Positions 5,201 to 18,651 are shown, numbered from the stretch's first letter. The stretch is 24,000 nucleotides of DNA from Saccharibacillus sacchari DSM 19268 (GCF_000585395.1 NZ_KK073875.1:1058407-1082406); one strand, 5' to 3'. Notes: generated from the letters alone by a model not told the origin. Made by a program: numbers and translations.

Positions 5201-5642
5201 AATTATCATTTGCTCCGGCAGTCCATTCGGTCGATGTAATTCCTCGCGACCATGCGAACCACGATCCGGCTGAACCGTTTTCTTTGGATATTACAGGTAT
5301 AGCTTTTCCTGTAAAGGTTTCTGTTCCTGTGTAACGTTGTGCGTTGACGTTAATTGTTTTAATTTCTTCGGTTCCGCGATAAAAAACAATCTTTTGAATT
5401 TTGTTGTTGGTACCTGCATTTTCGTTGATGGCTACTGTTGTTGCTGTTTTCTTTTTACCGAAACTCCAAGCGGTTCGTTGGGGTAGTGGTTTGACTCCGG
5501 ATTCTGATGTGTAGTTTAGTTGTTTTTTCTGAACTGCCGCTTCAATGTTTCCCTGATTCGGAAAAAAAACACTCAGCACGCTGCCCGCTAGGAGTAGTGT
5601 GCTGAGTCCGACAATGGTTAAGCGTTGCCGGGTTTTATTCAT
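2214..5642 (-). CDS. Large secreted protein of unknown function (1142 aa)
   Basis: Long uninterrupted ORF with an N-terminal signal peptide (MNKTRQRLTIVGLSTLLLAGSVLSVFF...EAA). Its ATG overlaps the stop of the upstream SLH gene (TAATG). I recognise no catalytic motif. Confidence 0.85.
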   Translation of the reverse strand: MNKTRQRLTIVGLSTLLLAGSVLSVFFPNQGNIEAAVQKKQLNYTSESGVKPLPQRTAWSFGKKKTATTVAINENAGTNNKIQKIVFYRGTEEIKTINVNAQRYTGTETFTGKAIPVISKENGSAGSWFAWSRGITSTEWTAGANDNWQELGNMPGAETERIRTVNNGTPYEFNYKTYPYKKVELTVKYPRTSNYYASFGEEKLQITTPFIDDSKETIKAENPETNNPNVVVNKQVDVRTGDLGITGRNDDSTKIVSFTLGVEPNGNPDAAVRNLDYATIKFTQEHGPDGAKYNLRQDNGPMVPYTTKQAQAMTFYYAAYEFAMKSFTYQYPDHYWVYTEKGDTQGPIGFCNVREGRTIEGEDMQPTPSAMIKADQRDREIFDVLQGIPTSESLYGNVLTKNYLNQYKFLEHKVTCIYEVPVTLQYTLKWDPGKDNPATPPIPAKLPDPQEEPDEVPYPVRTERLFSYWTVEKLGIYQIDSAELKNYAFEGESITIYPEGYTPPTLVLQKDGSYTEPETPAPFVAPHPPIVVNGGTSRPSPTNDIDIAQGYLEKVVGQITGKNDKVIFNGQTIMSDQEAEVQTPVPSKIPNGTMISRDVLYSPNHMIPRTKTNRMAAPSMGTVTYAGLSDNYDVEDGDTYPIPGINPVTVHTPVVNYSSTSDDAAHNQKTTPNYSRQAFILDRPFTITMPTSGQHQNYPGYGNRDYAKYFRSKEVYFPFDTYSSDRSIFYPKGTWINIPVGQIVTEFFLPVWVDEGDYTVTFRNTAENAPGIQPTQQDANFDLINHVASDTVDVEVIGRLYDFHITDIADYNWEMVFRTQEGSAVHTGNTYWTGLQGIDGAARGNNPPFTLPILPGSNPLEGMKNITVKTGYHIKFDLKTKGNMFGKTDGIRITPSFTFVSKDGKTQTPVDLYYNDDHRTFIKVGSPEDTEERYIILNDRLRNVPEEELTDTARYKYDNYYTFSEMNGVSRDMFIADYIRRFTKEKTPIGGFDLLLLPEQTRTLIGPKANLPGSVDFARANAAMQKWYGHYTLPGDPYVVVKGTNLAEYGRTHGGLTKRDPIFLRDGYIILNFNIESIRNGNLNAPHLQYINAPLMNQWTLEGFKHSVQDSWKNTFSVQDGDIVFYNADKSYKDDFQAEVNH

Positions 5643-6856
5643 TAGCGTGTACCACGCAGGCGAATAATGTCTTGATTGAAGAACAGTGATCCACTTGCAG
5701 GTGGTTGCAGTTTGATTGAGATGTCACTTTTTTGAACCCACCCCGTTTTCGGGATAATTACGCCTGGAATATCAAACCAGTTGTTTCGGTAAATCATAGC
5801 TGTTTGATTAAATTTCCCCGCAGAAAAGGCATCATCATTTGGTGAATCGAAACCTGATACTTCAAACTGCACGCGATTCCGTTCCGTGTATCTCTTCTTG
5901 TCTTTGTTGAAGACTTGACCGCCATCGAAATACAGCACGTAGCTGTTCAGGTTGTCCTTAACCATCAGATTCCCCATCGACAGTCGGTTATTCGACCATT
6001 TCAACGTATTCACATTCCCCAGCAGCGCGCGGTTCGGATCGTTCGGATCGGCCAGGTCGATCGCGATCAGGGCGTCAAGCTTGCCTTGATACAACCCGTC
6101 TTTCGACGTGATCGTCATGTTCTTTTCATTCCACATTTCCTCGATCGACGACTCGCCTTTATTCTTCCAATCCGAATCCGGTGTGACGAACATTTCCGGC
6201 ATCACCGTGAAGATGTTCGTGCCGTGCCAGAGGATTTCGGCGGCGCCGGTTGCGTACAGGTCGGAATCAAGTTCGCTGCCCGTGTTGACGCTCAGGATGC
6301 GCTCGATGATCACGACCGATTGGGCACGCGTCGTGAGGCCTTGCGGAGCCAGTTGTCCTTTACCGACGCCTTGGATCAGTCCGGACTTGGTGGCGAGGTA
6401 CATCCATTTGTCGTTCTCCGATGTTTTCTCGCCGATCGCACGTGCCGCGACGCGGGCCATTTCTTCGCGCGTCATCGTTTTGTTCCAACCCGAATCGTTG
6501 TTTGCGAAGTCGCTGCCGGCATACAGCCCGGCTTTCGTTGCGGCGTTGACGTATTGCGTGTACCATTTGCCGCTTGCCGGCGTGGTTTCCAGCTTCATTG
6601 CCGCGACAACCATCTTCACGAACTCGGCGCGGCTGACCGATGTGTCCGGCTTGAACGTCCCGTTGGTGTAGCCGTCGACGTAGCCCTTTGCTACGGCCTT
6701 CTGTACGGCGCTGTACGCCCAGTGACTCGACTTCACATCCGAAAAAGACGTACCTGCGGCTTGGACGCCAGAGGAGGCTCCGCTCCCCCAAAAGGCCCCC
6801 GCCAGAATTGCCGATGCTGCTGTAGCTTTCATCCATGTACTCCAAATCTTTTTCAC
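5642..6856 (-). CDS. S-layer homology (SLH) domain cell-wall-anchored protein
   Basis: Signal peptide, then SLH repeats (FSDVKSSHWAYSAVQKAVAKGYVDGYTNGTFKPDTSVSRAEFVKMVV; a second around TREEMARVAARAI and TRAQSVVIIERIL). The ORF track starts at ATG 6874, but GTG at 6856 has AAAGGGGA 6 nt upstream and gives MKKIWSTW..., so I prefer 6856. The start is uncertain. Confidence 0.85.
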   Translation of the reverse strand: MKKIWSTWMKATAASAILAGAFWGSGASSGVQAAGTSFSDVKSSHWAYSAVQKAVAKGYVDGYTNGTFKPDTSVSRAEFVKMVVAAMKLETTPASGKWYTQYVNAATKAGLYAGSDFANNDSGWNKTMTREEMARVAARAIGEKTSENDKWMYLATKSGLIQGVGKGQLAPQGLTTRAQSVVIIERILSVNTGSELDSDLYATGAAEILWHGTNIFTVMPEMFVTPDSDWKNKGESSIEEMWNEKNMTITSKDGLYQGKLDALIAIDLADPNDPNRALLGNVNTLKWSNNRLSMGNLMVKDNLNSYVLYFDGGQVFNKDKKRYTERNRVQFEVSGFDSPNDDAFSAGKFNQTAMIYRNNWFDIPGVIIPKTGWVQKSDISIKLQPPASGSLFFNQDIIRLRGTR

Positions 6857-7016
6857 TTCAAGTCCCCTTTCCATTCTTTGGTTTTAAATGTTCAGCATCC
6901 AGGCCTCCTCAATATGAACACACCCTTCTATTGTCGCTTGGTTGTAACTATTGGGAAAGTCCCATTTTTTTGTTTTCAAAGAACAATTTTATCTGTCGAT
7001 CTCTTCGGAAACACGC

Positions 7017-7061: not shown

Positions 7062-7325
7062 GTGCTTCGCGAGTATAAACGATACCTCTTTAAACTAATT
7101 GTTTTATAGATAGAAAGCAAGCTTTTTGAATTTATTTTCTGGAATTTTGTCTAACCCTTTCTATTTGCAATTTTTAAAAGTGGAAATTTGCTTGACCACT
7201 GCTGCAGCAACCTGTACACAAAGTTGAAACAATCTCGCCGGAAACGCATAATAGAAGAAGGCTCGTCGCTTCAATCGAAGAGCCTGCTCATTGAATTTTC
7301 AGGATCGATATAGATGGAGGGTCAC

Positions 7326-7970
7326 ATGAATCAATCCAAGCTCATTGCCGTGATCGGCGGAACCGGCAGCGTGGGTCGTTATGTCGTCAGCTGCGCGCTG
7401 CAACAGGGCTATCGGGTGCGCATGCTCGCGCGCAGCGTAAGAAGCATGCAATTGCCGCCGGAAATGGCAGCCCGGCTTTCTGTCATTCAAGGCGACGCGA
7501 CGCGCTTCGATTCGCTGCGCGATCTGCTGAACGGCTGCTCCGCGGTGATCAACACCTTCGGACGTCCCCCGCAAGAAGAACCTCTATACAGCAGCGTCAC
7601 GCGACGGGTACTCGAAGAAATGGAACGAGCCGGAGTTCGGCGCTACATCGGGGTTACCGGGTTGTCCCTGAAGCTTCAGGGCGACCATAAGTCGATCGGC
7701 GGACGCGTAGTCTCGCGCATGCTGCGTTCCCTGCATCCTCAGTTTGCCCAGGATCGCTTGGCCGAACTGGCCGTCCTTCAGAGCAGCTCCGTGGAATGGA
7801 CACTCGTCCGACTGCCGGTCGTCAAGGAAGGTCAGGGCGGCTGCGCGATCAAAGCCAACGCGGATCGAATGACGGGAAACCGGATCTATAACGGAGACGT
7901 CGCCCGTTTCCTCGTCAACCAGATCGACGAAGCGGAGTATGTGCGCCGCTGCCCGTTTATCGGAAACTAA
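7326..7970 (+). CDS. NAD(P)-binding oxidoreductase (NmrA/atypical SDR-like)
   Basis: Rossmann motif IAVIGGTGSVGRYV at the N-terminus and a length of about 214 aa. ATG 7326 has GGAGGG 6 nt upstream; the ORF-track ATG at 7314 overlaps that RBS. Confidence 0.75.
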   Translation: MNQSKLIAVIGGTGSVGRYVVSCALQQGYRVRMLARSVRSMQLPPEMAARLSVIQGDATRFDSLRDLLNGCSAVINTFGRPPQEEPLYSSVTRRVLEEMERAGVRRYIGVTGLSLKLQGDHKSIGGRVVSRMLRSLHPQFAQDRLAELAVLQSSSVEWTLVRLPVVKEGQGGCAIKANADRMTGNRIYNGDVARFLVNQIDEAEYVRRCPFIGN

Positions 7971-8123: not shown

Positions 8124-9143
8124 ATGGACTTTGTGGCAATCGACTTCGAAACGGCCAACTCCAAACGGGCAAGCGTCTGTGCGGTAGGCCTGGTCGAGGT
8201 GCGCGGCGGACGCATCGTCGACGAATATTACACGCTCGTCAATCCGCACGATGATTTTGATTATTTTTGTATTGCGGTGCATGGCATTACGCCCGATCAG
8301 GTCGAGGATGCGCCTTCATTTGCTGAGATTTGGCCTGAAATGCGAAGCCGGATCGAAGGCCGCGTGCTGGTCGCGCACAACGCTTCGTTCGATATGAGCG
8401 TATTGCGCCGCAGCGCCGAAGAATACGGTCTGGAACTGCCTCATATCCAATACATGTGCTCCTTCCTGATGGCGCGCAAGATCTGGCCGACGATGCCGAA
8501 TCATAAATTGAATACCGTAGCGAGCCAACTGGGTCTCAGCGCATTCAAGCATCACGACGCGATCGAGGATGCGCGAACGTCGGCCAAGATCATGCTGCGT
8601 TGTTCAACGGAAGGCGAAGCTTCGGATTGCGATGCCCTCGCGGCGCGTTACGGCTATCGCATTGGACAGATTACGCAAAATGGCGAGCATGTGACGTTCT
8701 CGGCTTCGGCTCCGAAAAGCAATCGGGGACGCGCCGGACAAGGCAGCTCTGCTGCTGCGAACGGTTCCTCAACGTCCAAAAAAAAGCCGCTTCCCGCATC
8801 CAATCGCGATGCTGACCCAACCAACCCGCTCTATGGAAAACGGATCGTATTCAGCGGCCGGATGAGCAGCATCAAGCGCGAAGAAGCGCTGCGACGTACC
8901 GCCAATCTGGGCGCATTCTGCACGGATTCGGTCGAATGGAAAACGGATTACCTGGTCGTGGGGCGCAACGATTATACAAAATACAGAGCGGGCAGCTACT
9001 CCAGCAGCAAGACGCAGTCGGCCGAAAAGCTGGCAGCCGGCGGCAGCACCATTCAAATCCTGTGCGAAGACGACTTCACGCCTCTGCTCGAAGAATTGGA
9101 ATTCGACGCCATACGGGTTGCGAAGGAGCGCCGCGATGGATAA
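8124..9143 (+). CDS. DEDDh (DnaQ-like) 3'-5' exonuclease fused to a C-terminal BRCT domain
   Basis: Exo I FVAIDFETAN, Exo II LVAHNASFDMSVL, Exo III HHDAIEDARTSAKI. A low-complexity linker precedes a BRCT-like GKRIVFSGRMSSIKREEALRRTANLGAFCTDSVEWKTDYLVVG. RBS GGGGAGGA lies 9 nt upstream. Confidence 0.8.
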   Translation: MDFVAIDFETANSKRASVCAVGLVEVRGGRIVDEYYTLVNPHDDFDYFCIAVHGITPDQVEDAPSFAEIWPEMRSRIEGRVLVAHNASFDMSVLRRSAEEYGLELPHIQYMCSFLMARKIWPTMPNHKLNTVASQLGLSAFKHHDAIEDARTSAKIMLRCSTEGEASDCDALAARYGYRIGQITQNGEHVTFSASAPKSNRGRAGQGSSAAANGSSTSKKKPLPASNRDADPTNPLYGKRIVFSGRMSSIKREEALRRTANLGAFCTDSVEWKTDYLVVGRNDYTKYRAGSYSSSKTQSAEKLAAGGSTIQILCEDDFTPLLEELEFDAIRVAKERRDG

Positions 9144-9609: not shown

Positions 9610-10242
9610 TCAGGCTTCGCCGATCGATACCGGAACGCCGTCTTCCGTCGCATCCGGATCGCCGTAGATGAAGTGTTCGACGCTAATAATGTTCTCTTCG
9701 AGCGTCCCTTGCGAATTGTCGAAGTACAGAACCGAACGGCCCGGTAGCTCCCATTGGACTTCGGTGCGCTGCATGCGCTGCACGAATTCGTCCCAGTTCG
9801 CCAGTTTCCATTCGTCGGCTTTATGTCCGCGGTCTTCAATGCGTTTTTTGTACTGAGCCATGTCTTCCAGATAGACGTAAACGACTTTGACTTCAACGTC
9901 GTTCACGGTCGCGCCGATCTTGGCCAGTTCTTCATGAATCCAGTTCGGGTTGCGAATCTCGCTGGTGAACGGGCCGACCGCGAATACGTCGGAACCCAGT
10001 TCCAGGTTCTCCAAAGCCGAGTCCATCGTCAGACGATAACCCAAATCGCGGCACAGCAGCTTGTATGCGGCCGAATCTCGGTCATGCGGATCATGTCCCA
10101 TCAGCTCCATGATCTTCTCGCTCGCCGGACGGGAAGCGGTGTCCATGTCCAGAAAGACCGGATGTTCCTTGATCGTAATGCCTTTGGCGATCGTCGTTTT
10201 GCCGCTTCCGGCTCCCCCTACGAAAAATACCAGTTTGCGCAT
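9610..10242 (-). CDS. P-loop NTPase / putative kinase (AAA_33-like guess)
   Basis: Walker A FFVGGAGSGKTT sits immediately after the start, followed by FLDMDT, a candidate catalytic Asp strand. The start is ambiguous: GTG 10263, ATG 10254 or ATG 10242. AAGGGGA precedes the last one by 11 nt. Confidence 0.65.
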   Translation of the reverse strand: MRKLVFFVGGAGSGKTTIAKGITIKEHPVFLDMDTASRPASEKIMELMGHDPHDRDSAAYKLLCRDLGYRLTMDSALENLELGSDVFAVGPFTSEIRNPNWIHEELAKIGATVNDVEVKVVYVYLEDMAQYKKRIEDRGHKADEWKLANWDEFVQRMQRTEVQWELPGRSVLYFDNSQGTLEENIISVEHFIYGDPDATEDGVPVSIGEA

Positions 10243-10300
10243 AGCGTCTTTCATCCCCTTCACTTGCCTGCTTCACGGCTGATTTTTGTCATAAAGAAGC

Positions 10301-10334
10301 GCGTTTCATATTGAAATACGCGCTGCGAATTGAT
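10301..10334 (-). terminator. Terminator/attenuator-like hairpin between tatD and the P-loop gene
   Basis: The minus strand reads AGCGCGT-A-TTTCA-ATA-TGAAA-ACGCGCT (12 bp total), followed by TCTTTAT. It lies 130 nt after the tatD stop and 45-65 nt before the P-loop gene start. Confidence 0.5.
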
Positions 10335-10462
10335 GTGTATTGGATAATTTTCATTTTAACATACTCATTTCGAAATGTTTAATGTTCGTCGAGAAAATGT
10401 TTATTCTTTTACCTATTGTATCGCGGATTCACCTTGCACTTGATTAGAGCCGATCGGATTTT

Positions 10463-11260
10463 TTAAAGTTTGAAAAAAGCTTTCGCCGTCTCTGTCGTCT
10501 GTTCCATGACTAATTCTGCGCTTCTGCCCGTGCATTCCGCGACAGCACGCGCAATATGCGGCAGATAAATGGGCTCGTTCCGTCCGTCTTTCGGCTTTGG
10601 CACCAGATCGCGAGGCGTCAAAAACGGCGCGTCCGTCTCGATCATGAGCCGATCCGGCGGGATCAGGCGCACCAGCTCGCGCAGATGTTTGCCGCGGCGT
10701 TCGTCGCAGATCCAGCCCGTGATCCCGATATGCAGACCCATATCCAGATAAGCGCGCAGTTCCGCTTCCGTGCCGGTAAAACAATGCACCACGGCCGGAA
10801 GTTCGGCAGGCTTCATCCGGCGGATGATCCGCGCGAAGTCCTCGTGGGCGTCCCGTTCATGCAGGAACAGCGGCATCTCCAGCTCCTCTGCCAACTCGAC
10901 CTGCTTCGCGAACCATTCCAGCTGCGTGTCTCGCGGCGAGAAGTCGCGATTGTAATCCAGTCCGCATTCGCCGATCGCCACCACTTCATCTCCTGCTGCC
11001 AGGTCGCGGAGACTTTGCAGCGTGCGTTCGCCGCAGCTTTTCGCGTCATGCGGATGCACGCCTGCGGTTGCATAAAGCTGACCGGGATAACGTCGGGCAT
11101 AATCGGCGGCCGCTTCGCTGCTCCGCACGCTCGTCCCGGTGATAATCATGGGAGATACCCCCGCTTCAATCGCGGCTTGCACCACTTGCTCGCGGTCGTA
11201 ACCGAACGAGCGGTGCATCAGATTGATGCCGATATCGATTGTCTGTCGCAAAGATGACAT
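10463..11260 (-). CDS. tatD: TatD-family metal-dependent nuclease
   Basis: Collinear with my memory of E. coli TatD: IDIGINLMH, AGVHPHD, IGECGLDYNRDF, LFLHERDAHEDF, VVHCFTGT, IGITGWICDERRG, IETDAPFLTPRD, RNEP..LPHI. ATG 11260 has AAAGGAG 8 nt upstream; the ORF-track GTG at 11269 overlaps the RBS. Confidence 0.9.
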   Translation of the reverse strand: MSSLRQTIDIGINLMHRSFGYDREQVVQAAIEAGVSPMIITGTSVRSSEAAADYARRYPGQLYATAGVHPHDAKSCGERTLQSLRDLAAGDEVVAIGECGLDYNRDFSPRDTQLEWFAKQVELAEELEMPLFLHERDAHEDFARIIRRMKPAELPAVVHCFTGTEAELRAYLDMGLHIGITGWICDERRGKHLRELVRLIPPDRLMIETDAPFLTPRDLVPKPKDGRNEPIYLPHIARAVAECTGRSAELVMEQTTETAKAFFKL

Positions 11261-11319
11261 ATCCAACACTCCTTTTGCTGTTCATTGATCTGTACCTGAA
11301 TACGTCCAGCCTTATTCGT

Positions 11320-12021
11320 TTAACGCTTCGAGCGCGGCTCCGGCTTGTCTTCATAGGTCTCGTCCAGTTGGATCAGGTTGGGAGGAATACATTCAGCCAA
11401 CCAAACTTCGCTGCCCGCATCGTAAAAAATAATGCCTTCGTTCATTGCCGACGCGGAATCGATACGCAGCATGATGAGCTTACCCTTACGCCGTCCTGCC
11501 AATGCGGCAAAAGACGTTTCCGCCGACAGATGTACGTATTCCCGGCCCATGGGCAGCAGCCCGTGTTCTTCGATAGAAGGCAGCGCCTGTCGTCCCGTGC
11601 CGTGATACAGGACGGTCGGCGGCGTGCCTTGCGGATAAGTCACGCGTCCGAAACTATGACCGTAACGGGCGCGTATACGCGGCTCGGGCGCTTTTTCGGC
11701 CGATGCTCCCTTTTCCGCTTCGTCCACAGGCTCCAGGATTTCGAAACGCTGCTTGTCCGAACGACGCACCACGCCGCGAATGTCCTCTTCGGTCGTATCC
11801 GCGTAGCCGGTCCGGTTGCGGACGGCCGCCAATAGCTCGTCGAGTCCGCAAGATCCGTCTTCCGGATCAAGCGTCAGTCCGAAATCTTCCGGCGAATGCC
11901 GCAGCATCATGGACATCAGCTTGCTGATTTTTTTGTCCTGCTCGGCGGTCGACAACTTCGGTTCCCGGCTTTGTCCCCGGTAAGGATTGCCTCCGCCTTT
12001 GTTTTTATTGTTTTTGCTCAT
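11320..12021 (-). CDS. kptA: RNA 2'-phosphotransferase (Tpt1/KptA family)
   Basis: KISKLMSMMLRHSPEDFGLTLDPEDGSCGLDELL, then RFEI, RARYGHS, VLYHGT and VHLS motifs typical of Tpt1/KptA. RBS GAGGAGAA lies 8 nt upstream. Confidence 0.85.
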   Translation of the reverse strand: MSKNNKNKGGGNPYRGQSREPKLSTAEQDKKISKLMSMMLRHSPEDFGLTLDPEDGSCGLDELLAAVRNRTGYADTTEEDIRGVVRRSDKQRFEILEPVDEAEKGASAEKAPEPRIRARYGHSFGRVTYPQGTPPTVLYHGTGRQALPSIEEHGLLPMGREYVHLSAETSFAALAGRRKGKLIMLRIDSASAMNEGIIFYDAGSEVWLAECIPPNLIQLDETYEDKPEPRSKR

Positions 12022-12316
12022 TGGTCATTCTCCTCGTTTCTTCTTGCCTTACGCCGGGCATACGCAGCCAACTGGCATACTCATTGCGGAGCCACGGGTC
12101 GCTTGCGGTAGCGATCTTCCGATGCAGCTCTTCGATCAAGTTCGAAGACGCGTTTTCATTAATCGCCATAGGGATGAAATCCGTAAGATCGTGCGCACCT
12201 GCACACGCCGAAGCCTTCGCATACAAATCAATCAACGCGAGTACGGCCCATTCTTCGTCCAAATGTTCGGTCAGCCGATCCAGACATTTGTACAGCTCGT
12301 GAATGTCCGATTCCAT
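12005..12316 (-). CDS. Hypothetical 103-aa protein embedded in the RNA-repair operon
   Basis: ORF between rtcB and kptA whose 3' end overlaps the kptA start by 17 nt. ATG 12316 has GGGAGG 11 nt upstream; the longer ATG at 12385 has no RBS. Predicted helical and acidic, with no motif I recognise. Confidence 0.55.
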   Translation of the reverse strand: MESDIHELYKCLDRLTEHLDEEWAVLALIDLYAKASACAGAHDLTDFIPMAINENASSNLIEELHRKIATASDPWLRNEYASWLRMPGVRQEETRRMTNEQKQ

Positions 12317-12424
12317 GAACCCGAACGCCTCCCTGCTATCTATATCAACGCAAATACAACCCCGTTTGTTTCCCCGGAGCTGCATTTTTGCTTTTTTCGT
12401 ATCGCTGCGTTCGTCCGCTTCCGT

Positions 12425-13651
12425 TTAATCTTTATACGGATCAAACTCGTTCGCCCCTGCCATCGCGACGCCGATCGGCTTCAAGGTATGCAGCACGTCG
12501 ATCGTTTCCGAATGCGCGTCCAGCACCTCTTGAAGCTTCCGATATACAAAAGGACTCTCGTCCGTGCCCGCGCCTCTCAGCTCGACATCGAACTGCTTGA
12601 CCGCTTTCATCATGCGCTCTTCGGTAATCTCGCCGCCGATTCGCACACGCGTTTTCCAATTCATTTTCCCTGCGGCCTGCGTTCGGCTCATAATGCGACC
12701 TGCTCCATGCACCGTGCTGTAAAAGGACTCGCCGTTCTCCGCCGTGTTTTTCCCGCGCACGATCACCGAAATATCCGCCATGCTGCCTCCGATAAAACCG
12801 AGCTGACCCGGAGCCGAAGGCGTCGCTCCTTTGCGCACGACAATGCAGTCTTTGCCTTCGTGCTTTTCTTTCCAGGCGAAGTTGTGATGGTTGTGCACCT
12901 CGAAATCGCTTGTCGCGCCCAAAATACCCAACACCTGCTCGATGACGTAATCCCGCCCCGCATACGCGTAACGTCCGGCCAGCTTCATCGCGCGGTAGTA
13001 CATGTCGCCCGTCTCGCTATCGAGATCGAATAGTACAGGGGGCTGATCCATGCTTTCGCCCGGCGCTTTGCCCAAGAAATCGCGGCCCGCCGCCACGTTC
13101 AGGAACCCGCTCGCCGTTTTATGACCGAAGCCCCGGCTGCCGAAATGGTTTCCGATCCAGATCCGCCCCGTCGACGGCTCTTCGAAAATATCGACGTAAT
13201 GGTTGCCGCTGCCGACTGTGCCGAGTTGATCGCGCGCCAGCTTTTTCAGCTTGTCGTGCACATTGCCGCCGATCTGCCGATACACCGACCAGTCGGGATC
13301 GTCGAACAGCTCGTGATCCACCTTTTTCTGATTGACGCGGCCCACACCGAACTCCACGCTACGGGCGATCTGATCCATGACGGACTTGATGCGCGGTTTG
13401 ACGTCTTCGGCCATCAGGTTCGTGCGCACCGCTTTGTTGCCGCAGCCGATATCATAACCGACGCCGCTCGGGGAAATTTGCCCTTCGTACGCGAGGACGC
13501 CGCCGATCGGCTGGCTGTACCCTTTATGATGATCGGCCATCAGCAGCGCTTGCACCACGTTCCCATGGTATGCGCAGGTTTGAGCCTGCTTCAGCGCGCT
13601 TTCGTCCACTTTTCCCCATACCCTTACCTTATCTATCGTTTCGTAACTCAT
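12425..13651 (-). CDS. rtcB: RNA 3'-phosphate/5'-OH ligase RtcB
   Basis: 408 aa with MADHHKGYSQPIGGV, VGYDIGCGN, GSGNHYVDIF, GNHFGSRGFGH, HNHHNF and STVHGAGR (guanylyl-His region). The ATG overlaps the rsr stop (ATGA). Confidence 0.93.
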   Translation of the reverse strand: MSYETIDKVRVWGKVDESALKQAQTCAYHGNVVQALLMADHHKGYSQPIGGVLAYEGQISPSGVGYDIGCGNKAVRTNLMAEDVKPRIKSVMDQIARSVEFGVGRVNQKKVDHELFDDPDWSVYRQIGGNVHDKLKKLARDQLGTVGSGNHYVDIFEEPSTGRIWIGNHFGSRGFGHKTASGFLNVAAGRDFLGKAPGESMDQPPVLFDLDSETGDMYYRAMKLAGRYAYAGRDYVIEQVLGILGATSDFEVHNHHNFAWKEKHEGKDCIVVRKGATPSAPGQLGFIGGSMADISVIVRGKNTAENGESFYSTVHGAGRIMSRTQAAGKMNWKTRVRIGGEITEERMMKAVKQFDVELRGAGTDESPFVYRKLQEVLDAHSETIDVLHTLKPIGVAMAGANEFDPYKD

Positions 13652-15171
13652 GATGTTTCATTCCCTTCTTTTTCGTCCGCTAACCGATCCAAATCCATTC
13701 TCGCGACATGCGCACTCATGGAATCGAACCCGCGCGCCGCCGCCGAGATATAAGGCAGCACCTGATCGCTCCAGCCGTAGACGTAATGCGTGTTCAGGTC
13801 TTCCTTGGGCACCATCGCTCCGCGATACGGCGACAAATCGACGATGAACGCTTTGGCGTCGCGGTTGATTTTGGAACGATAACGCTGAAGTTCGGTATAA
13901 AAAGGACTGCCTTCGTTCTGCTGCTCGTCCGTCACGATAATGATCTGGTCGACGTTTTCCCGCAGCTCGTTCAGACGCCGCACCGGCAGGCCCGTATCCG
14001 TTCCGCCTCTGGCTTTGATCCGCGATGCTTGTCCCATGATGCTCGCGTTTCGCGAAGGCTGCGGGTCGTGCACTTCATGGTCAAAAGTGAGAAAAATCGA
14101 GCGTCCGCCCGTCTTTTTATACAGAGCCAAAGCGAAAACGGAACCCGTCCGCAAATAATCGCCTTCCATCGAACCCGAAATATCGAGCAGAATCGCGGTA
14201 CGGCCCGGCAGATCCGGCAGGCTGGCGAAGGTCAGATCGACGGCTTCGGCCAATGCTTCCTTGATGACCGGATGTTTCACCTGACCGTAAGCCGTGGCGA
14301 ACCGCAGCGGCAAAATCTTCGATTTGCGCAGCGCCGCCGCATCGTTCAGACGCTCGACCGCGTAGCGCAGATGCTGCGGATGCTCGAACAATCCTTCGCG
14401 CTCGAACGTGTTTAGATGGCGCAGCAGCGCGAAGATCGGCATCTGGTACAGCAGCGCTTCCCAGATTTTTTTGTTCGCCGTTACCGCTCCGGTCACCGTC
14501 TCGTACGGCAGCTTGCCTTCGCGGATCAGGCGGATGCGCGTTTTGTCTTTGCTCGCCTTTTTCAACTGTTCGACGGCTTGGATCTGCGGCAACCCTTCGA
14601 GCGTCGTCTCATGGCCGCGCAGATAACGGAACAGCGCCTGCTGGCGTTCGTCGGTTGGAATCGGATGCGCGGTCGCGATCGCGTCTCCCAAATTATACCC
14701 CCGACCGTGGCCGCCGTATTTGATCGCCCAATATTCCGACGTTTTTTGCAGGAAAGCCGCGATTTGCCGCTTAACCGCACGGCCTCCCTGACCCCGTCCC
14801 ATGCCGCGCAGAATCGTCAGGAAGTCGGACAGGTCGGGCGGAATCAGAACTAAGTGCAGGAATACTTTGCGGAATAGGTCAGGGCGCGCTTTGGACAGTA
14901 CCGCCAACCCGTAAATCGGCTGCAAACGCATAAAGCCTTTTGTTCTCGCGAACACCAGTGCCTTGGCCATGAATTCCGGGTTCAGCTCGACCATCGCTTC
15001 GTGCGTATCGGCAGCTTGAGCCAGCAGATCGTGAGCGTCCGCATAAAAGGTATTGCCGAGCGTGTTCGTCAGCAGCATCTGCACGTATTCTTCTTCGAAG
15101 CTGCGATTATGGGCACGGTACCCTTCGGCGTTGAACAGGGATTCGGTAAAACGTTGCACGGCACGACTCAT
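13648..15171 (-). CDS. rsr: Ro60-related protein Rsr (TROVE domain + vWA/MIDAS domain)
   Basis: TROVE-like LGNTFYAD, RTKGFMRLQPIYGLAVL, LRGMGRGQGGRAVKRQIA, WAIKYGGHGRGYNLGDAIATAHPIP. C-terminal vWA with the MIDAS motif LLDISGSM and RGGTDTG. RBS GAAGGAGG lies 8 nt upstream. Confidence 0.9.
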   Translation of the reverse strand: MSRAVQRFTESLFNAEGYRAHNRSFEEEYVQMLLTNTLGNTFYADAHDLLAQAADTHEAMVELNPEFMAKALVFARTKGFMRLQPIYGLAVLSKARPDLFRKVFLHLVLIPPDLSDFLTILRGMGRGQGGRAVKRQIAAFLQKTSEYWAIKYGGHGRGYNLGDAIATAHPIPTDERQQALFRYLRGHETTLEGLPQIQAVEQLKKASKDKTRIRLIREGKLPYETVTGAVTANKKIWEALLYQMPIFALLRHLNTFEREGLFEHPQHLRYAVERLNDAAALRKSKILPLRFATAYGQVKHPVIKEALAEAVDLTFASLPDLPGRTAILLDISGSMEGDYLRTGSVFALALYKKTGGRSIFLTFDHEVHDPQPSRNASIMGQASRIKARGGTDTGLPVRRLNELRENVDQIIIVTDEQQNEGSPFYTELQRYRSKINRDAKAFIVDLSPYRGAMVPKEDLNTHYVYGWSDQVLPYISAAARGFDSMSAHVARMDLDRLADEKEGNETS

Positions 15172-15251
15172 GTCGATGGCCTCCTTCGGATGTTGGACTG
15201 CTTATATTGGATTGTTGGTAAGGGAAACGGATCGTTGTGCTGCTCACACGT

Positions 15252-15292
15252 GAGACGTTCATGTTTTTGCGCGACGACATGGATGAACGTCT
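15252..15292 (-). promoter_or_regulatory. 10-bp-stem hairpin in the rsr 5' leader, adjacent to CTCAC-N2-GTGAG
   Basis: AGACGTTCAT(15252-15261) and ATGAACGTCT(15283-15292) are perfect inverted repeats with a 21-nt loop. The inverted repeat CTCACacGTGAG at 15243-15254 abuts it. It lies 80-120 nt upstream of the rsr ATG. Confidence 0.4.
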
Positions 15293-15436
15293 TGCGTTTA
15301 AACAGCAGAGAATAGATGAACACGAATCGCCGGCGAAGAAAAACGGAGAAGGTCACGCGGGGCTCGAAACCCTTTACTGCCGTTTTGGTTCTCTTTTATG
15401 GTCGAAGGAACCCTCTCCCGCGCCTCGTCGGCGTTA

Positions 15437-15604
15437 CGTGTTCGGTTAGTACTAGGGCATGTCCGAAGAAAAAGGTGGAAAGGAACAAGCTGCTCTACCG
15501 CTGAGCTATTCCGCCGCGCATGGCGGAAACCGGATTCGAACCGGCGACCTGCCGATTAAAAGTCGAAGTAACCCTTCCTGGCGCCTCGGACAATTCCGAT
15601 CACG
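15437..15604 (-). ncRNA. yrlA: Bacterial Y RNA (YrlA-like) with permuted tRNA-like module
   Basis: Reading the minus strand:
- Basal stems: CGUGAUCGG(15604-15596) pairs with CCGAACACG(15445-15437); UGUCCGAGG(15592-15584) pairs with CUUCGGACA(15468-15460).
- Variable loop: AGGUC.
- T-arm: GCCGG-UUCGAAU-CCGGU(15545-15529).
- Acceptor-like stem: 7 bp, UUCCGCC/GGCGGAA, closed by loop AUGCGC(15528-15509).
- D-arm: UA, then GCUC-AGCGGUA-GAGC(15506-15492).
- Position: 265 nt upstream of rsr on the same strand.
- Ends are approximate. Confidence 0.75.
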
Positions 15605-15815
15605 TTCAAAGCCGTTTGGCCTCGCCGCTCTCGTTTGCCTGGGTTCATCTTCGCATGGCCGGAGGGACTTCAACAGGGCGAAAGTATGGCAAACGGCAAA
15701 AATGCAGGGAAGATCCATTATTTTTGGACAGCGGTAACTTAACTCGATCGGATTGCGTTCAAGAAATAATCATTCGAATTTTGACCTTGATCTTCAATAA
15801 AGGGATGTGTATACC

Positions 15816-16196
15816 ATGTTCAAAAAGAAACGTCTCGCCTGGACAACCGCCATTCTTCTCGCCGTGATCCTGAGCGGCATTTTGGTTTTTCGTTCGGTGC
15901 TGGACATGAACGAATCCGAACTGTCGACAGCCGAAATCGCGTTCAATCAGGTGGAATTGACGCCTAATGCTCTGAGAATCAGCGGAACGCTGGTGGCCAG
16001 CGCATTGAGCTATCGGGATTGCGAATACGAACAGGACGGCAGCAATCTGTACATCACGCTGCAAGGCGGATTGGTCACGAAAAAACATCCCGACGGCGAT
16101 TTCGACATTTCGATCCGAAACGACGATTTCTCGAAGGTCGACCGTGTCTATCTCAAGCACGGGGAAGATCATGTTCTGATTTACCCGCAGCGCTGA
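15816..16196 (+). CDS. Small membrane-anchored/secreted hypothetical protein
   Basis: MFKKKRLAWTTAILLAVILSGILVF is an N-terminal TM/signal anchor, followed by a beta-rich region of about 100 aa. AAGGGA lies 10 nt before ATG 15816; the ORF-track GTG at 15807 abuts the RBS. Confidence 0.6.
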   Translation: MFKKKRLAWTTAILLAVILSGILVFRSVLDMNESELSTAEIAFNQVELTPNALRISGTLVASALSYRDCEYEQDGSNLYITLQGGLVTKKHPDGDFDISIRNDDFSKVDRVYLKHGEDHVLIYPQR

Positions 16197-16308
16197 AAAG
16201 ATCATGCACGAAGCCGATCAAGCCATACGTCTTCCGTTCGCCATACTTGCGCCCTTTCCCCCACCCTCCCTTTCCGTTTAAAATATCCGTACCTGCAACA
16301 CCCGGATT

Positions 16309-16367: not shown

Positions 16368-17654
16368 ATGGCCAAAGAAAGTTTCGACAAAGAGATCCAG
16401 TTCCTGCGCCTGCTTGCCCTGACCGGAGGCGGTTATGATCGGCAGCAGTTCGCGGGACGCCTCGGCATCTCGGTACATACCTTCGACAAAACGGTCCGCA
16501 AACTGCGCGAGATCAGCGGAGACGCGGATTTTGCCGACCTGTTCCGCTACGGATATGCCGATTCGGCCGAGCCGGTGCTGCTGTTCTTGTACCGCGCCAA
16601 GTCGATGAAGGAATCGGAAAGCCGCCGCCTGCCGCTCATCCTGACCGCGCTCAAAGGCACGCCGCAGACCGCCGCCGAGCTGCTCGACGCCTGCTGCGAG
16701 CGCCTGCCCCTGGATGCCGCCATGCCGGACGAGAAAACGATCCGTTCCGACCTGCGTTATCTGGAAGAGATCGGCGTCGTGCGGCGCGAACCAGGCGGTC
16801 GTCCATACCGATATGTGTTGAACAACGACCTGACCGACTGCCTGTCCCAAAAAGAACTGATCGATCTCTACGAGTTCGTCGATATCATGGCTAACACGCA
16901 GATTCCTTCCGTTCAAGGATACCTACTGCGCGACAATCTCAAAAAAGCGCTCAAATCCGCCGTACCCGAAGAAGAGTGGGACGACGGTCTACTGGAGCCT
17001 TTTTCCTATAAATATCATTACGACGCGCGCATTCTGGACGAAGCCCATCTGTACACGCTGCTTCGAACCATCCATCTGCGCAAACGCATCTCGTTCCAAT
17101 ACTTTTCGCCGAAAAATCGCAAAAGCTACTCGGCCAAAGAAACCAATCCCCTGTTCGGCCGCGAAACGGAGGTTCGACGCGAAAGTACGCTGCCGCTTAA
17201 GGTCGTGTACGATCATCAATACGGCAGATGGTATCTGATCGGTGCCGCCGCCAAAGGTCGTTTCGTCAAGTTCCGCATGGAGGGCATGATCGATATTGCG
17301 GAAGAGCAGGAAGCGCCGGACGAATATTTCGCGCTCAAAAAGCAGCAGCTCGACGAACAAATGCGCCACAGTTGGCTGATCGATACCGGCGAGACCGTCA
17401 CGGTACGCGCCAAGTTCTACCGTCCTCGCGGACAAGCCGACTTCATCGCGGAACGCGTGCGGCTGCAGGGCCAATGGGGGCAGATCGTGGAGGAGAACGA
17501 AGACTTCTTCATCTATGAGATTCAAGTCAACGGCGTAACGGAAATCCGGCCGTGGCTGCGGGGGTTCGGGTCGAGCTGCGAAGTGCTGGCACCCGCGGAT
17601 TTGAGACAGTCGTTCATCGACGAATGGAAGGAGATCGGAGACTATTATGAATAA
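16368..17654 (+). CDS. HTH + WYL + WCX domain transcriptional regulator (PafB/PafC-like architecture)
   Basis: N-terminal HTH-like segment (LGISVHTFDKTVRKLREI) and a winged-helix-like segment (TAAELLDAC...IRSDLRYLEEIGVVRREPGGRPYRYVL). WYL core ISFQYFS...LKVVYDHQYGRWYLIGAAAKGRFVKFRMEGMIDI. C-terminal WCX-like IRPWLRGFGSSCEVLAPADLRQSF. Confidence 0.75.
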   Translation: MAKESFDKEIQFLRLLALTGGGYDRQQFAGRLGISVHTFDKTVRKLREISGDADFADLFRYGYADSAEPVLLFLYRAKSMKESESRRLPLILTALKGTPQTAAELLDACCERLPLDAAMPDEKTIRSDLRYLEEIGVVRREPGGRPYRYVLNNDLTDCLSQKELIDLYEFVDIMANTQIPSVQGYLLRDNLKKALKSAVPEEEWDDGLLEPFSYKYHYDARILDEAHLYTLLRTIHLRKRISFQYFSPKNRKSYSAKETNPLFGRETEVRRESTLPLKVVYDHQYGRWYLIGAAAKGRFVKFRMEGMIDIAEEQEAPDEYFALKKQQLDEQMRHSWLIDTGETVTVRAKFYRPRGQADFIAERVRLQGQWGQIVEENEDFFIYEIQVNGVTEIRPWLRGFGSSCEVLAPADLRQSFIDEWKEIGDYYE

Positions 17655-18585
17655 TCCTTTCGAAAAAATATTCAACTACCAGCTCTCCTCGCGGCTTGAA
17701 GAAACGGGCGTCTACACGCTCACGTCGCAAGAACGCTCCTGGCTGAAGTCGATGCTGGAGCATCCGGCGGCGCACGAAGCTCTGGAGCCGCGCACGATCG
17801 CCAAACTGCAAGAGTGCGTGCTGGACGACGAAATCTCGAATCTGCTGGACGGACTGGAGCAAAAAGCGGGCAGCCTTGAAACCCAAATCGTCCATCCGCT
17901 GCTGTCTCCGATCCGCCGCATCCTGCGCAACCGTCAAGGAATGACCATCCAATGCCGCACCAAGAAAGGAAAGCTCAACGAGCCTCAGCCGGGCATTCCG
18001 TACAAGCTGGAGTATTCGATGGTCAAACGCGAATGGTATCTGCACTGGTACAATTCGTCGACGCGCTCGATCCTGCATACGCGGCTGTGCCATATCGTGT
18101 CGGTGGAGCAGTCGCGCGTATCCCGTACCTCTTACGAAGAACAAACGGTTCGCGCGCAGAAGCTGTTCGAAGCGCCGCGGCACGAAGCCGTCGTCGAGGT
18201 GATCCGCACGTTTAACGCCGAACTGACGCGGATTCTGCATGCTTTTTCCTGCTTCGATAAAAAGGTCGAGTTCGACGAGGAAGAACGGACCTACCGGATT
18301 CACCTGACGTTTACCGATAGCGAAGGCCAATTCGTGCTGACCAAGCTGCGTTTTCTGGGCAAGCGGGTCCGCGTCGTGGAGGGAAATTACCTGAAATACC
18401 GGATGCGGGAAACGGCGAGGAAGGCGTTGGCGCTGTATGGAGTGGAAGGAGCGAACGCGGTCGAAACTTCGGACAGCGATCAAAGCAAAGCAGCCGAAGG
18501 CTCGGCGGATGCGCAAAAGGCGGAGCAATCTTCGAACTCGAAAAACGCTGCCGATATCATCGCTCGAACGAAAATTCCGGGCTGA
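17647..18585 (+). CDS. WYL + WCX domain protein without an obvious HTH (partner of the upstream regulator)
   Basis: The ATG overlaps the upstream stop by 8 nt (ATGAATAA), with GGAG 6 nt upstream. WYL-like PYKLEYSMVKREWYLHWYNSSTRSILHTRLCHIVSVE and WCX-like KLRFLGKRVRVVEGNYLKYRM. Ends in a low-complexity Ser/Ala/Glu tail. Confidence 0.65.
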   Translation: MNNPFEKIFNYQLSSRLEETGVYTLTSQERSWLKSMLEHPAAHEALEPRTIAKLQECVLDDEISNLLDGLEQKAGSLETQIVHPLLSPIRRILRNRQGMTIQCRTKKGKLNEPQPGIPYKLEYSMVKREWYLHWYNSSTRSILHTRLCHIVSVEQSRVSRTSYEEQTVRAQKLFEAPRHEAVVEVIRTFNAELTRILHAFSCFDKKVEFDEEERTYRIHLTFTDSEGQFVLTKLRFLGKRVRVVEGNYLKYRMRETARKALALYGVEGANAVETSDSDQSKAAEGSADAQKAEQSSNSKNAADIIARTKIPG

Positions 18586-18651
18586 TCACCGAACAAGATC
18601 GGAAGTCCATGCGTTCATATGTTGTAGATCCATCACGAAAGGAGCTTGCGG

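Follow-up and report, generated by a model that had tools for sequence, protein, structure and literature searches.

Introduction

Ro60 and Y RNAs are encoded beside the RNA ligase RtcB in Salmonella and in 'diverse bacteria' (PMC7790460). In Mycobacterium smegmatis the Y RNAs yrlA and yrlB precede rsr, which encodes the Ro60 orthologue, on one precursor (PMC4201824). The shuffling of RNA-repair modules around Ro/TROVE proteins, with RlaP and KptA among the enzymes involved, goes back to Burroughs and Aravind (2016), as cited in later papers (PMC7790460; PMC12776372; PMC7824862). WYL and CARF regulators have been proposed, in general terms, as sensors over RNA-repair pathways (PMC9503650; for general background on WYL proteins see PMC4012209), and the role of Tpt1, the family to which KptA belongs, has been called a 'longstanding mystery' in bacteria (PMC6573784).

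Here we describe a locus of Saccharibacillus sacchari DSM 19268 in which two tandem Y RNAs, rsr, rtcB, an open reading frame (ORF) of 103 amino acids (aa), kptA and tatD form a compact array on the minus strand (10463-15687). Positions are counted within the whole stretch of DNA that was analysed, 24,000 nucleotides (nt) long (NZ_KK073875.1:1058407-1082406) and called the window below. The locus is a lineage-specific version of a modular Ro60/Y-RNA repair system, and it is reasonably probable that it serves as a Paenibacillaceae-type Ro60/Y-RNA RNA-damage response operon.

Gene content of the locus

An earlier note on this DNA, made from the sequence alone, had described a co-directional array of rsr, rtcB, a small ORF, kptA and tatD. 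This array is real. Family scans used Pfam, NCBIfam and PADLOC, and 18 long candidate ORFs of the window were scanned; Pfam and NCBIfam agree on all family assignments, and in the profile hidden Markov model searches that had been suggested (TROVE, RtcB, PTS_2-RNA and TatD_DNase) every named family was matched by its ORF.

The product of rsr (13648-15171) is a Ro60 orthologue with matches to TROVE (3.8e-10; 40 bits, cut-off 23) and vWA_Ro60 (4.1e-07; 30.5 bits, cut-off 27.7), and D330, S332 and S334 of its DxSxS motif are invariant in alignment A7. Orthologues of 60-66% identity occur throughout the Paenibacillaceae. As the score against the NCBIfam Rsr equivalog lies far under the cut-off (82.6 bits vs 900), this Rsr belongs to a divergent subfamily. 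The next gene, rtcB (12425-13651), shares the claimed 4 nt with rsr (ATGA, 13648-13651) and encodes an RNA 3'-phosphate/5'-OH ligase (Pfam RtcB, 4.8e-71). Its metal-binding and GMP-histidine motifs align with those of P. horikoshii RtcB, with GYDIGCG, GSGNH, HxGSRG and HGAGR all conserved.

The small ORF (12005-12316) overlaps kptA (11320-12021) by 17 nt, as had been stated. The tatD ORF extends over 10463-11269, with its probable start at ATG 11260 behind an AAGGAG site. Counted from this start the kptA-tatD gap is 59 nt, in line with the earlier figure of about 59 nt, and it is 50 nt from GTG 11269. Compared with two Saccharibacillus genomes, every array gene is under purifying selection, with ratios of non-synonymous to synonymous substitution rates (dN/dS) of 0.03-0.14 for the enzymes, including 0.12-0.14 for rsr and 0.03-0.07 for rtcB. 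A terminator consensus scan found five sites where 10.2 were expected by chance; all lie within genes and none in the intergenic gaps of the array. Together, this supports a tightly packed co-directional set of intact RNA-end enzymes beside Ro60 and Y RNA, which is presumably co-transcribed.

RtcA and RtcR had been claimed to be absent, and neither was found, a statement that applies to the window and not to the whole genome. RtcA has no match among the 18 scanned ORFs, nor in the Pfam-annotated related loci, and no CARF/AAA+ sigma-54 activator of the RtcR kind is encoded in the window. The sigma-54 promoter consensus (TGGCAC-N5-TTGC) has four weak matches in the window against 9.35 expected, none of them near the operon or in the region upstream of rsr and the Y RNAs. 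Because RtcA, RtcR and a sigma-54 promoter are missing from the window, the enzymatic make-up differs from that of the Salmonella rsr-yrlBA-rtcBA operon, as the earlier note had proposed.

Y RNAs and the leader of rsr

A single Y RNA had been noticed previously. It is present, and two Y-RNA-like units can be recognised in all, at 15461-15591 and 15331-15430 on the minus strand. The first (Y RNA 1, of the YrlA type) lies 290 nt upstream of rsr on the same strand. At the gathering score Rfam has no match in the window, and in seven related loci it returns no YrlA, only three true tRNA genes in L005. A local search with YrlA (RF02553) gives 42.5 bits at 15459-15590 (E 1e-07), below the gathering cut-off of 69, and a sub-threshold tRNA match of 24.9 bits overlaps the same unit.

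Y RNA 1 folds with two basal stems, a closing stem of 8 base pairs (bp) and a second of 7 bp, and a tRNA-like module consisting of an anticodon-like arm, a T arm, a 7-bp acceptor-like stem and a D arm; the same architecture was set out for YrlA by Chen et al. 2014 (PMC4201824). Covariation supports this fold. In an alignment of nine tRNA-like units from eight loci (A1), compensatory changes are seen in 14 of the 35 pairs, and paired cells amount to 98.4%, against at most 58.5% in slid-partner controls, with 0 of 500 shuffles as good.

The 5' motif of the units (GAGGCGC-N6-GGGnTnCTTCG) has two mismatch-free matches in the window, where 0.03 are expected, and the first seven related loci each have two or three copies ahead of rsr. 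In place of the GNCGAAN0-1G motif (PMC4201824) the units carry G-N-C-G-A-G-G, e.g. GGCGAGG, and the exact GGCGAAG is found only in the third Y RNA of L005. The second unit of the window (Y RNA 2, YrlB-like) is the weaker candidate. With Y RNA 1 it shares the 5' motif and the basal stems; it has a matching 3' strand, but only a T-arm-like hairpin. Its closing stem contains an A.C mismatch; the counterparts in L002 and L006 fold canonically. This second unit is a probable Y RNA.

Between Y RNA 2 and rsr lies a long leader hairpin (15238-15307, minus strand; -33 kcal/mol, z -3.59) that 0 of 200 shuffles equalled. L001 shares it, L006 has it in altered sequence and L002 lacks it. The hairpin may be a processing or attenuation element.

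Several relatives vary the Y-RNA region. In S. endophyticus (L001:4932-5037) the T-loop-like hairpin of the Y RNA 2 counterpart holds an insert of about 105 nt, absent from the window, which folds as a long hairpin and may be a small mobile or structured insert. In Cohnella soli (L005:7222-7483) three genuine tRNA genes (Pro-UGG, Ile-GAU and Asn-GUU) lie between a first box promoter (6339-6354; see below) and the box/Y-RNA cluster upstream of rsr, an arrangement resembling the Deinococcus Yrn2-tRNA-Yrn1 precursor, with a 57-aa ORF instead of a Y RNA after the first box. In L044, whose Rsr is 51% identical, the Y-RNA 5' motif is matched ten times within 1.7 kb upstream of rsr, perhaps marking an enlarged Y-RNA array. 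The anticodon-like and T arms of Y RNA 1 (15530-15572, minus strand) are 93% identical over 43 nt to unannotated stretches in 11 Xanthomonas/Xylella phage genomes, probably phage tRNA genes; the phage search with the Y RNAs gave nothing beyond this tRNA-like match.

A conserved promoter box and a divergent WYL pair

Ahead of the first Y RNA stands a promoter/operator box, ATACTTTCGCCCTGTT (15672-15687, minus strand), with one exact copy at this place in each of the first eight loci, and a -10-like GAAGAT (15647-15652) lies downstream of it. The comparison set consisted of eight individually looked-up contexts and 67 metagenomic rsr loci, with neighbours tabulated by tblastn. With at most one mismatch allowed, a search of 78 sequences gives 38 distinct instances of the 16-nt box ATACTTnnGCCnTGTT, each of them on the rsr strand; in 36 of the 38 the Y-RNA 5' motif begins 83-102 nt downstream. 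The promoter consensus reads TCGnCATACTTnCGCCnTGTTCG, about 15 nt, then GCGAAGATAA. A weak -10 with a box over the -35 region is typical of the activator-dependent kind, which such promoters would thus appear to resemble.

Divergent from the Y RNAs, on the plus strand, are two genes for WYL proteins. The first (16368-17654) encodes a helix-turn-helix (HTH)-WYL-WCX protein, the candidate regulator of the locus, with matches to WCX (1.7e-11; 44.7 bits, cut-off 23.9), WYL (1.1e-04; 22.6 bits, cut-off 21.8) and the PADLOC WYL model (6e-27); the match of its N-terminus to HTH_23 is weak, at 16.5 bits, and below cut-off. The second gene (17647-18585) overlaps the first by 8 nt. Its product matches the PADLOC WYL model (5.8e-13) and contains a KLEYS..REWYL.WY motif, with no Pfam match and no recognised HTH. 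Across genera the regulator is 58-65% identical and the second protein 44-50%, and in the tabulation of related loci the second accompanies the regulator in every case.

Box and WYL pair follow the relatedness of Rsr. Taking only loci with at least 3 kb of upstream sequence, and splitting them by Rsr identity to the window protein, a divergent WYL pair is present in 23 of 30 loci at 56% identity or above and the box in 29 of 30 (all but L036); below 56%, both are found in 0 of 13. A degenerate copy of the box, ATACTTGCGCCCTTTC (16243-16258, plus strand), precedes the WYL gene by 110 nt and is accompanied by TAAAAT at the corresponding spacing. It has two mismatches, and 0.43 such matches per window are expected by chance. 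In the window, L001 and L013 alike, the variant box, ATACTTnCGCCCTTTC, stands exactly 110 nt ahead of the WYL gene and has its TAAAAT at the equivalent spacing, and in each of these three loci a gene for a 129-aa membrane protein is found between the WYL genes and the Y-RNA promoter. The position of the variant box fits autoregulation and is a correlative argument that the box may be the WYL operator. Most likely, the WYL pair controls the Y-RNA promoter and senses a nucleic-acid damage signal.

The 129-aa protein (15807-16196, plus strand; dN/dS 0.09) carries a membrane or signal segment at its N-terminus, matches no family and occurs only in some Saccharibacillus loci (window, L001, L011, L013). 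In P. hunanensis a gene for a very large protein of the DUF4132/DUF5724/DUF7737 type (L007:1-1786) adjoins the WYL pair.

No box was found upstream of kptA-tatD pairs that occur without rsr, which are therefore probably regulated differently. In L025, a sequence like a shortened box, TCGCATACGCCCTGTTGA (18590-18615), stands about 260 nt upstream of distal genes for KptA, TatD and an ADP-ribosylglycohydrolase (ARH), and could mean that these genes share their regulation with the rsr operon 7 kb away.

Exchangeable cassettes behind a fixed core

What follows rsr varies among relatives, and at least eight alternative cassettes, that of the window being one, stand behind the Y-RNA/rsr core. The combination RtcB-ORF103-KptA-TatD is found in Saccharibacillus only (window, L001, L002 and L013), and the locus of S. 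endophyticus (L001) is fully syntenic with the window. S. deserti (L006) has RtcB followed by a KptA-TatD fusion, P. mucilaginosus (L003) has RlaP-KptA-TatD, and Brevibacillus (L004, L014) has Hen1-Pnkp. Other loci carry RlaP-RtcB (L005, L016, L020-L024), RlaP-Hen1-Pnkp with or without RtcB (L025, L027/L061, L058), RlaP with distant Pnkp-like and usually also Hen1-like genes (L032-L034, L037, L062), RlaP alone (L028, L029, L035) or RtcB alone (L030), and in L007, L018 and L036 nothing recognisable follows rsr. In the metagenomic Paenibacillaceae loci L020-L024 (e.g. L020:5840-8840), the RtcB matches behind RlaP span about 3 kb and not 1.2 kb, which suggests that these genes contain inteins.

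The members of the alternative cassettes (combinations of RlaP, KptA, TatD, Hen1, Pnkp and RtcB) are known RNA-repair enzymes. Given this variety behind a fixed core, the operon of the window is one lineage-specific combination in a modular Paenibacillaceae system. The exact order rsr-rtcB-ORF-kptA-tatD, whose conservation across Paenibacillaceae the earlier note had proposed to tabulate, is kept within Saccharibacillus and not beyond the genus. The idea of a self-contained module is not supported: the conserved unit is the box promoter with the Y RNAs and rsr, usually with the divergent WYL pair, and the enzymes are one of at least eight cassettes. The box, the WYL pair and the exchange of cassettes had all escaped the earlier note. 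Calling the gene content non-canonical was an overstatement, since it was already accepted that RNA-repair modules are shuffled around Ro/TROVE.

That these genes are adjacent by chance and have no joint function is barely credible. It would account for a gene order confined to one genus, and for KptA occurring alone (L009) or without rsr (L008, L010). It leaves unexplained the overlapping start and stop codons, the repeated linkage of Rsr to RNA-repair enzymes in many genera, the conserved promoter and the recurrence of KptA-TatD as a pair that is fused in one genome.

The same shuffling is what would be expected under conflict, and the locus might serve mainly in conflict with other microbes or phages, where it would mend tRNA or rRNA that toxins or anticodon nucleases have cut. 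This differs from a general RNA-damage response only in its trigger. WYL regulators often control defence systems (PMC4012209), the PADLOC WYL models match, and a tRNA-like Y RNA could be a decoy (as suggested in PMC7790460). However, family and PADLOC scans found no recognisable defence island or mobile-element genes in the window, the locus is chromosomal and syntenic within the genus, and all genes are under strong purifying selection. We regard a conflict trigger as unlikely.

KptA and TatD

The kptA (tpt1) product is a predicted NAD+-dependent RNA 2'-phosphotransferase (PTS_2-RNA 3.9e-37; 128.4 bits, cut-off 26) that does not reach the NCBIfam equivalog cut-offs (158 vs 231) and has a low-complexity N-terminal extension and a 17-aa insert. 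Its motifs LRHSP, KQRFEI and IRARYGHS align with Tpt1 structures, and the Arg-His-Arg-Arg catalytic residues are present. The closest solved relative is Clostridium thermocellum Tpt1 (3e-33), which takes terminal 2'- and 3'-phosphates off RNA (PMC6573784).

TatD is a homologue of the E. coli-type TatD 3'-5' exonuclease (TatD_DNase 1.9e-73, 247 bits), with a full-length match to E. coli TatD (1XWY, 4PE8; 2e-78). Its best NCBIfam model is that of the TatD 3'-5' single-stranded DNA (ssDNA)/RNA exonuclease (NF007745; 313.2 bits, under the cut-off of 395). At the N-terminal GxN motif, DIGINL aligns with DIGVNL of the E. coli enzyme (type I and II TatD motifs as defined in PMC13434339).

TatD directly follows KptA in 9 of 11 KptA loci, five of which are from Saccharibacillus, so that not all are independent. 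The S. deserti fusion is 520 aa long, with PTS_2-RNA at 17-224 and TatD_DNase at 263-519, and P. donghaensis and Cohnella sp. AR92 have the pair without rsr. A literature search found no paper linking KptA/Tpt1 with TatD. The recurrent gene pair and the one fusion suggest that KptA and TatD may act jointly on RNA ends. We prefer the reading that KptA would unblock phosphorylated 3' ends, which TatD would then trim, as a branch beside sealing by RtcB.

The pairing can also be read through NAD+ and ADP-ribose chemistry, with TatD as a partner that processes the ADP-ribose cyclic phosphate by-product of KptA and not as a nuclease. A pair and a fusion suggest consecutive steps on one substrate or product, and an ADP-ribosylglycohydrolase gene follows KptA-TatD in Cohnella sp. 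AR92 (L010:9369-10256) and in L025 (19937-20821). Elsewhere KptA is linked to 2H, Macro or Nudix enzymes handling the ADP-ribose product (PMC9503650), and the TIM-barrel metal-dependent hydrolase fold of TatD can support phosphodiesterase chemistry. Set against this are the full-length alignment with E. coli TatD (E 2e-78), a characterised exonuclease, and the lack of a precedent for such a TatD activity in the searched literature, and a non-nuclease TatD is highly unlikely.

ADP-ribosylglycohydrolase genes also lie 0.3-3 kb downstream of rsr in L047, L052 and L071 (Rsr 44-46% identical), and such neighbours hint at a wider link of Ro60 loci with ADP-ribose chemistry. In Cohnella sp. AR92 (L010:3064-7983) very large proteins of the DUF4132/DUF5724/DUF7737 type are encoded directly before KptA-TatD-ARH.

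TatD also bears on the question of whether DNA, and not RNA, is what the locus repairs. PafBC/DriD-type WYL regulators respond to ssDNA, and TatD cleans damaged DNA 3' ends. The TatD of the window is of the E. coli type, and the name of its NCBIfam model covers ssDNA and RNA alike. RtcB is able to join DNA ends that carry a 3'-phosphate, enzymes of the KptA type can ADP-ribosylate 5'-phosphates of DNA, and in Saccharibacillus the locus has a gene for a DnaQ-BRCT exonuclease as a conserved neighbour. Yet the alternative cassettes (Hen1-Pnkp, RlaP, RtcB) consist of RNA-specific repair enzymes (PMC12776372) and tRNA is what the Y RNAs mimic. Linkage of the DnaQ gene, which is convergent, is confined to one genus, and a solved-structure search with the WYL proteins recovered no PafBC/DriD-type relative. 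A DNA-damage repair module is plainly unlikely.

The 103-aa protein and neighbouring genes

The small protein between RtcB and KptA is real (dN/dS 0.18). The mechanical ORF (12005-12385) would give 126 aa; the likely start is ATG 12316, behind a GGGAGG ribosome-binding site. It is an orphan of Saccharibacillus only, with five clusters among 5.8 billion proteins, all from this genus, three representatives among 1.84 billion proteins in an exhaustive profile search, and two loci in a genome-collection scan; S. deserti lacks it. It has no meaningful match in Pfam, NCBIfam or PADLOC. An AlphaFold model consists of six short helices (predicted local distance difference test score, pLDDT, 73.8), and in a search of this model against the PDB no fold match had an E below 1. 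We considered an archease-like cofactor of RtcB and rejected it, there being no significant Pfam match, Archease included, and the model being all-helical. The protein is probably a genus-specific accessory factor.

Beyond tatD lies a gene for a P-loop kinase-like protein (9610-10263, minus strand; AAA_33 1.1e-07, Pfam) for which PDB searches gave only marginal kinase P-loop matches. The coordinates given in the earlier note take in this gene. It has its own promoter, TAAACA-17-TGTTAAAAT, with an extended -10 (10353-10381, minus strand), invariant in four Saccharibacillus loci including the divergent L002, and no linkage outside Saccharibacillus, where no counterpart was found beside KptA-TatD. 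P. donghaensis encodes a 216-aa protein at the equivalent site that is no relative of the P-loop protein, so that the P-loop gene was dismissed as a conserved third member with KptA and TatD. It is probably a separate transcription unit.

This bears on the terminator that had been proposed for the operon. The intergenic gaps are indeed free of terminator-like sites, and the hairpin noted earlier is present at 10301-10334 (-12.1 kcal/mol, z -2.45); three loci have kept it and L002 has lost it. The hairpin lies between the P-loop promoter and the P-loop gene, i.e. in a 5' leader, and because it is downstream of that conserved promoter it is not clearly an operon terminator. It could be a regulatory element of the leader.

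Convergent to the P-loop gene is a gene for a DnaQ-type DEDDh exonuclease fused to a BRCT domain (8124-9143, plus strand), which matches the PADLOC candidate family PDC-S48 and is a conserved neighbour in all complete Saccharibacillus loci (L001, L002, L013). Further away, genes for a 1142-aa DUF5704 protein and a 410-aa SLH-domain protein (2214-6874, minus strand) lie between an NAD-binding gene (7314-7970) and an alkaline phosphatase gene (424-2082). In L001 the latter two genes are about 250 nt apart, which suggests an insertion in the window.

A model for the locus and its significance

In the RNA-damage response that we favour, the dedicated promoter with its box over the -35 region would drive the two Y RNAs, rsr and then the lineage-specific cassette of RNA-end enzymes. 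The WYL pair (HTH-WYL-WCX and WYL-only) would sense a nucleic-acid damage signal and control this promoter, filling, if so, the place of RtcR, the CARF/sigma-54 activator of enterobacteria. Rsr, with its predicted RNA binding, would form a ribonucleoprotein with the Y RNAs and capture damaged or misfolded structured RNAs (tRNA, rRNA). RtcB would reseal 2',3'-cyclic-phosphate or 3'-phosphate ends to 5'-OH ends. The predicted activity of KptA, using NAD+, would remove terminal or internal 2'-phosphates, and possibly 3'-phosphates, which RtcB could not use and which would block an exonuclease. Where an RNA is beyond rejoining, TatD would then trim or degrade its unblocked 3' end. In this model the signal that induces the operon, the sequence in which the enzymes act and their substrates are inferred.

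Several points weigh against this model. The box also occurs at loci without adjacent WYL genes (L002, L006, L015, L020-L024), which makes the link between box and WYL pair a correlative one. An alternative sigma factor could instead be what recognises the box, and the WYL proteins are without sequence-detectable relatives among solved structures. Y RNA 2 of the window is thermodynamically unremarkable (z +0.53, not better than shuffles), and transcription is assumed to reach rsr across two structured Y RNAs and a strong leader hairpin. On the enzymatic side, E. coli TatD is best documented in DNA repair, and the KptA-TatD fusion is known from a single genome. KptA yields 2'-OH/3'-OH ends, which RtcB cannot join, and RtcB and KptA-TatD may therefore serve separate branches, repair in one case and decay in the other.

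A bolder version, possible though doubtful, extends the model to a family-wide Paenibacillaceae regulon. Here a heteromeric WYL pair would sense broken nucleic acid and activate the box promoters, and KptA-TatD would be an unrecognised two-enzyme module in which KptA strips 2'- or 3'-phosphates with NAD+ and TatD trims the end or processes the ADP-ribose by-product. If this is true, bacterial Tpt1 would have a physiological role for the first time, and Ro60 and Y RNA would be linked in mechanism to RNA end repair.

That Ro and Y RNA stand beside RNA ligases and that repair modules are shuffled is already established, and the advance here is a well-defined variant that does not overturn current ideas. 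As far as checked, three features appear to be new: the WYL pair and box promoter ahead of the Y RNAs, the recurrent KptA-TatD pair with its fusion, and the clear exchange of cassettes, within one bacterial family, behind a core that stays the same. The locus points to WYL-type proteins replacing the CARF-type sensor RtcR ahead of equivalent repair machinery. It also bears on what Tpt1/KptA does in bacteria without a ligase that makes 2'-phosphate junctions (PMC6573784), and on what Rsr and Y RNAs contribute to RNA-repair operons, roles not addressed in PMC7790460. Both questions are testable here, where a compact conserved promoter and a candidate sensor-regulator come with natural cassette swaps and a natural KptA-TatD fusion.

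Comparison with known systems

The regulators PafBC, DriD, BrxR and CapW, which we take to be HTH-WYL-WCX proteins, share the architecture of the 16368-17654 product. PafB and PafC are two WYL paralogues encoded in tandem, like the pair in the window, for which a damage- or infection-responsive role is predicted here. Unlike these regulators, the window pair has no detectable similarity to any solved structure, and its second partner has no recognisable HTH.

In the fungal and plant pathway of tRNA ligase and Tpt1 (PMC6573784), the likeness lies in a Tpt1-family enzyme with intact catalytic motifs. The present locus differs in having no fungal-type ligase that makes an internal 2'-phosphate, and RtcB leaves no 2'-phosphate. 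The Pnkp/Hen1 system is absent from the window. In relatives such as Brevibacillus it stands where the window cassette does, after the shared Y-RNA/rsr/WYL core, which suggests that the two have equivalent roles. Its end chemistry is opposite to that of RtcB, with kinase-phosphatase healing and 5'-phosphate/3'-OH sealing accompanied by 2'-O-methylation.

With the Salmonella enterica rsr-yrlBA-rtcBA operon (PMC7790460) the locus shares a Ro60 orthologue, two Y RNAs (one tRNA-like) and RtcB in what is apparently one damage-linked unit, and a divergently encoded ligand-sensing regulator, here a candidate. In Salmonella the Y RNAs lie between rsr and rtcB, whereas here they are upstream of rsr. 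The window has no RtcA, no CARF/sigma-54 RtcR and no sigma-54 promoter; its candidate regulator is a WYL pair with a different conserved box, and KptA, TatD and an orphan protein are added. As RtcA, RtcR and the sigma-54 promoter were looked for and not found in the window, the locus stands outside the Rtc system in the strict sense.

The order of tandem Y RNAs upstream of rsr on the same strand is that of yrlA-yrlB-rsr in M. smegmatis and Yrn-rsr in D. radiodurans (PMC4201824). As in M. smegmatis, a tRNA-like Y RNA with an acceptor-like stem of 7 bp comes first and one with a T arm only comes second, and the tRNA genes among the Y RNAs of Deinococcus have a parallel in relative L005. In contrast to both, repair enzymes directly follow rsr here and the Y RNAs are under the Rfam YrlA cut-off. 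In Deinococcus the partner nuclease is polynucleotide phosphorylase (PNPase), tethered by the Y RNA, an arrangement not known from the window. On structural grounds, though under the Rfam threshold, the locus belongs to the bacterial Ro60/Y-RNA locus type. Its variable part resembles the modular Ro/TROVE systems of Burroughs and Aravind (2016, NAR 44:8525; as cited in PMC7790460, PMC7824862 and PMC12776372), in which operons exchange a ligase, the nucleotidyltransferase RlaP, enzymes that modify ends and a scaffold of Ro and Y RNA, and in which KptA counts as an end-cleaning enzyme.

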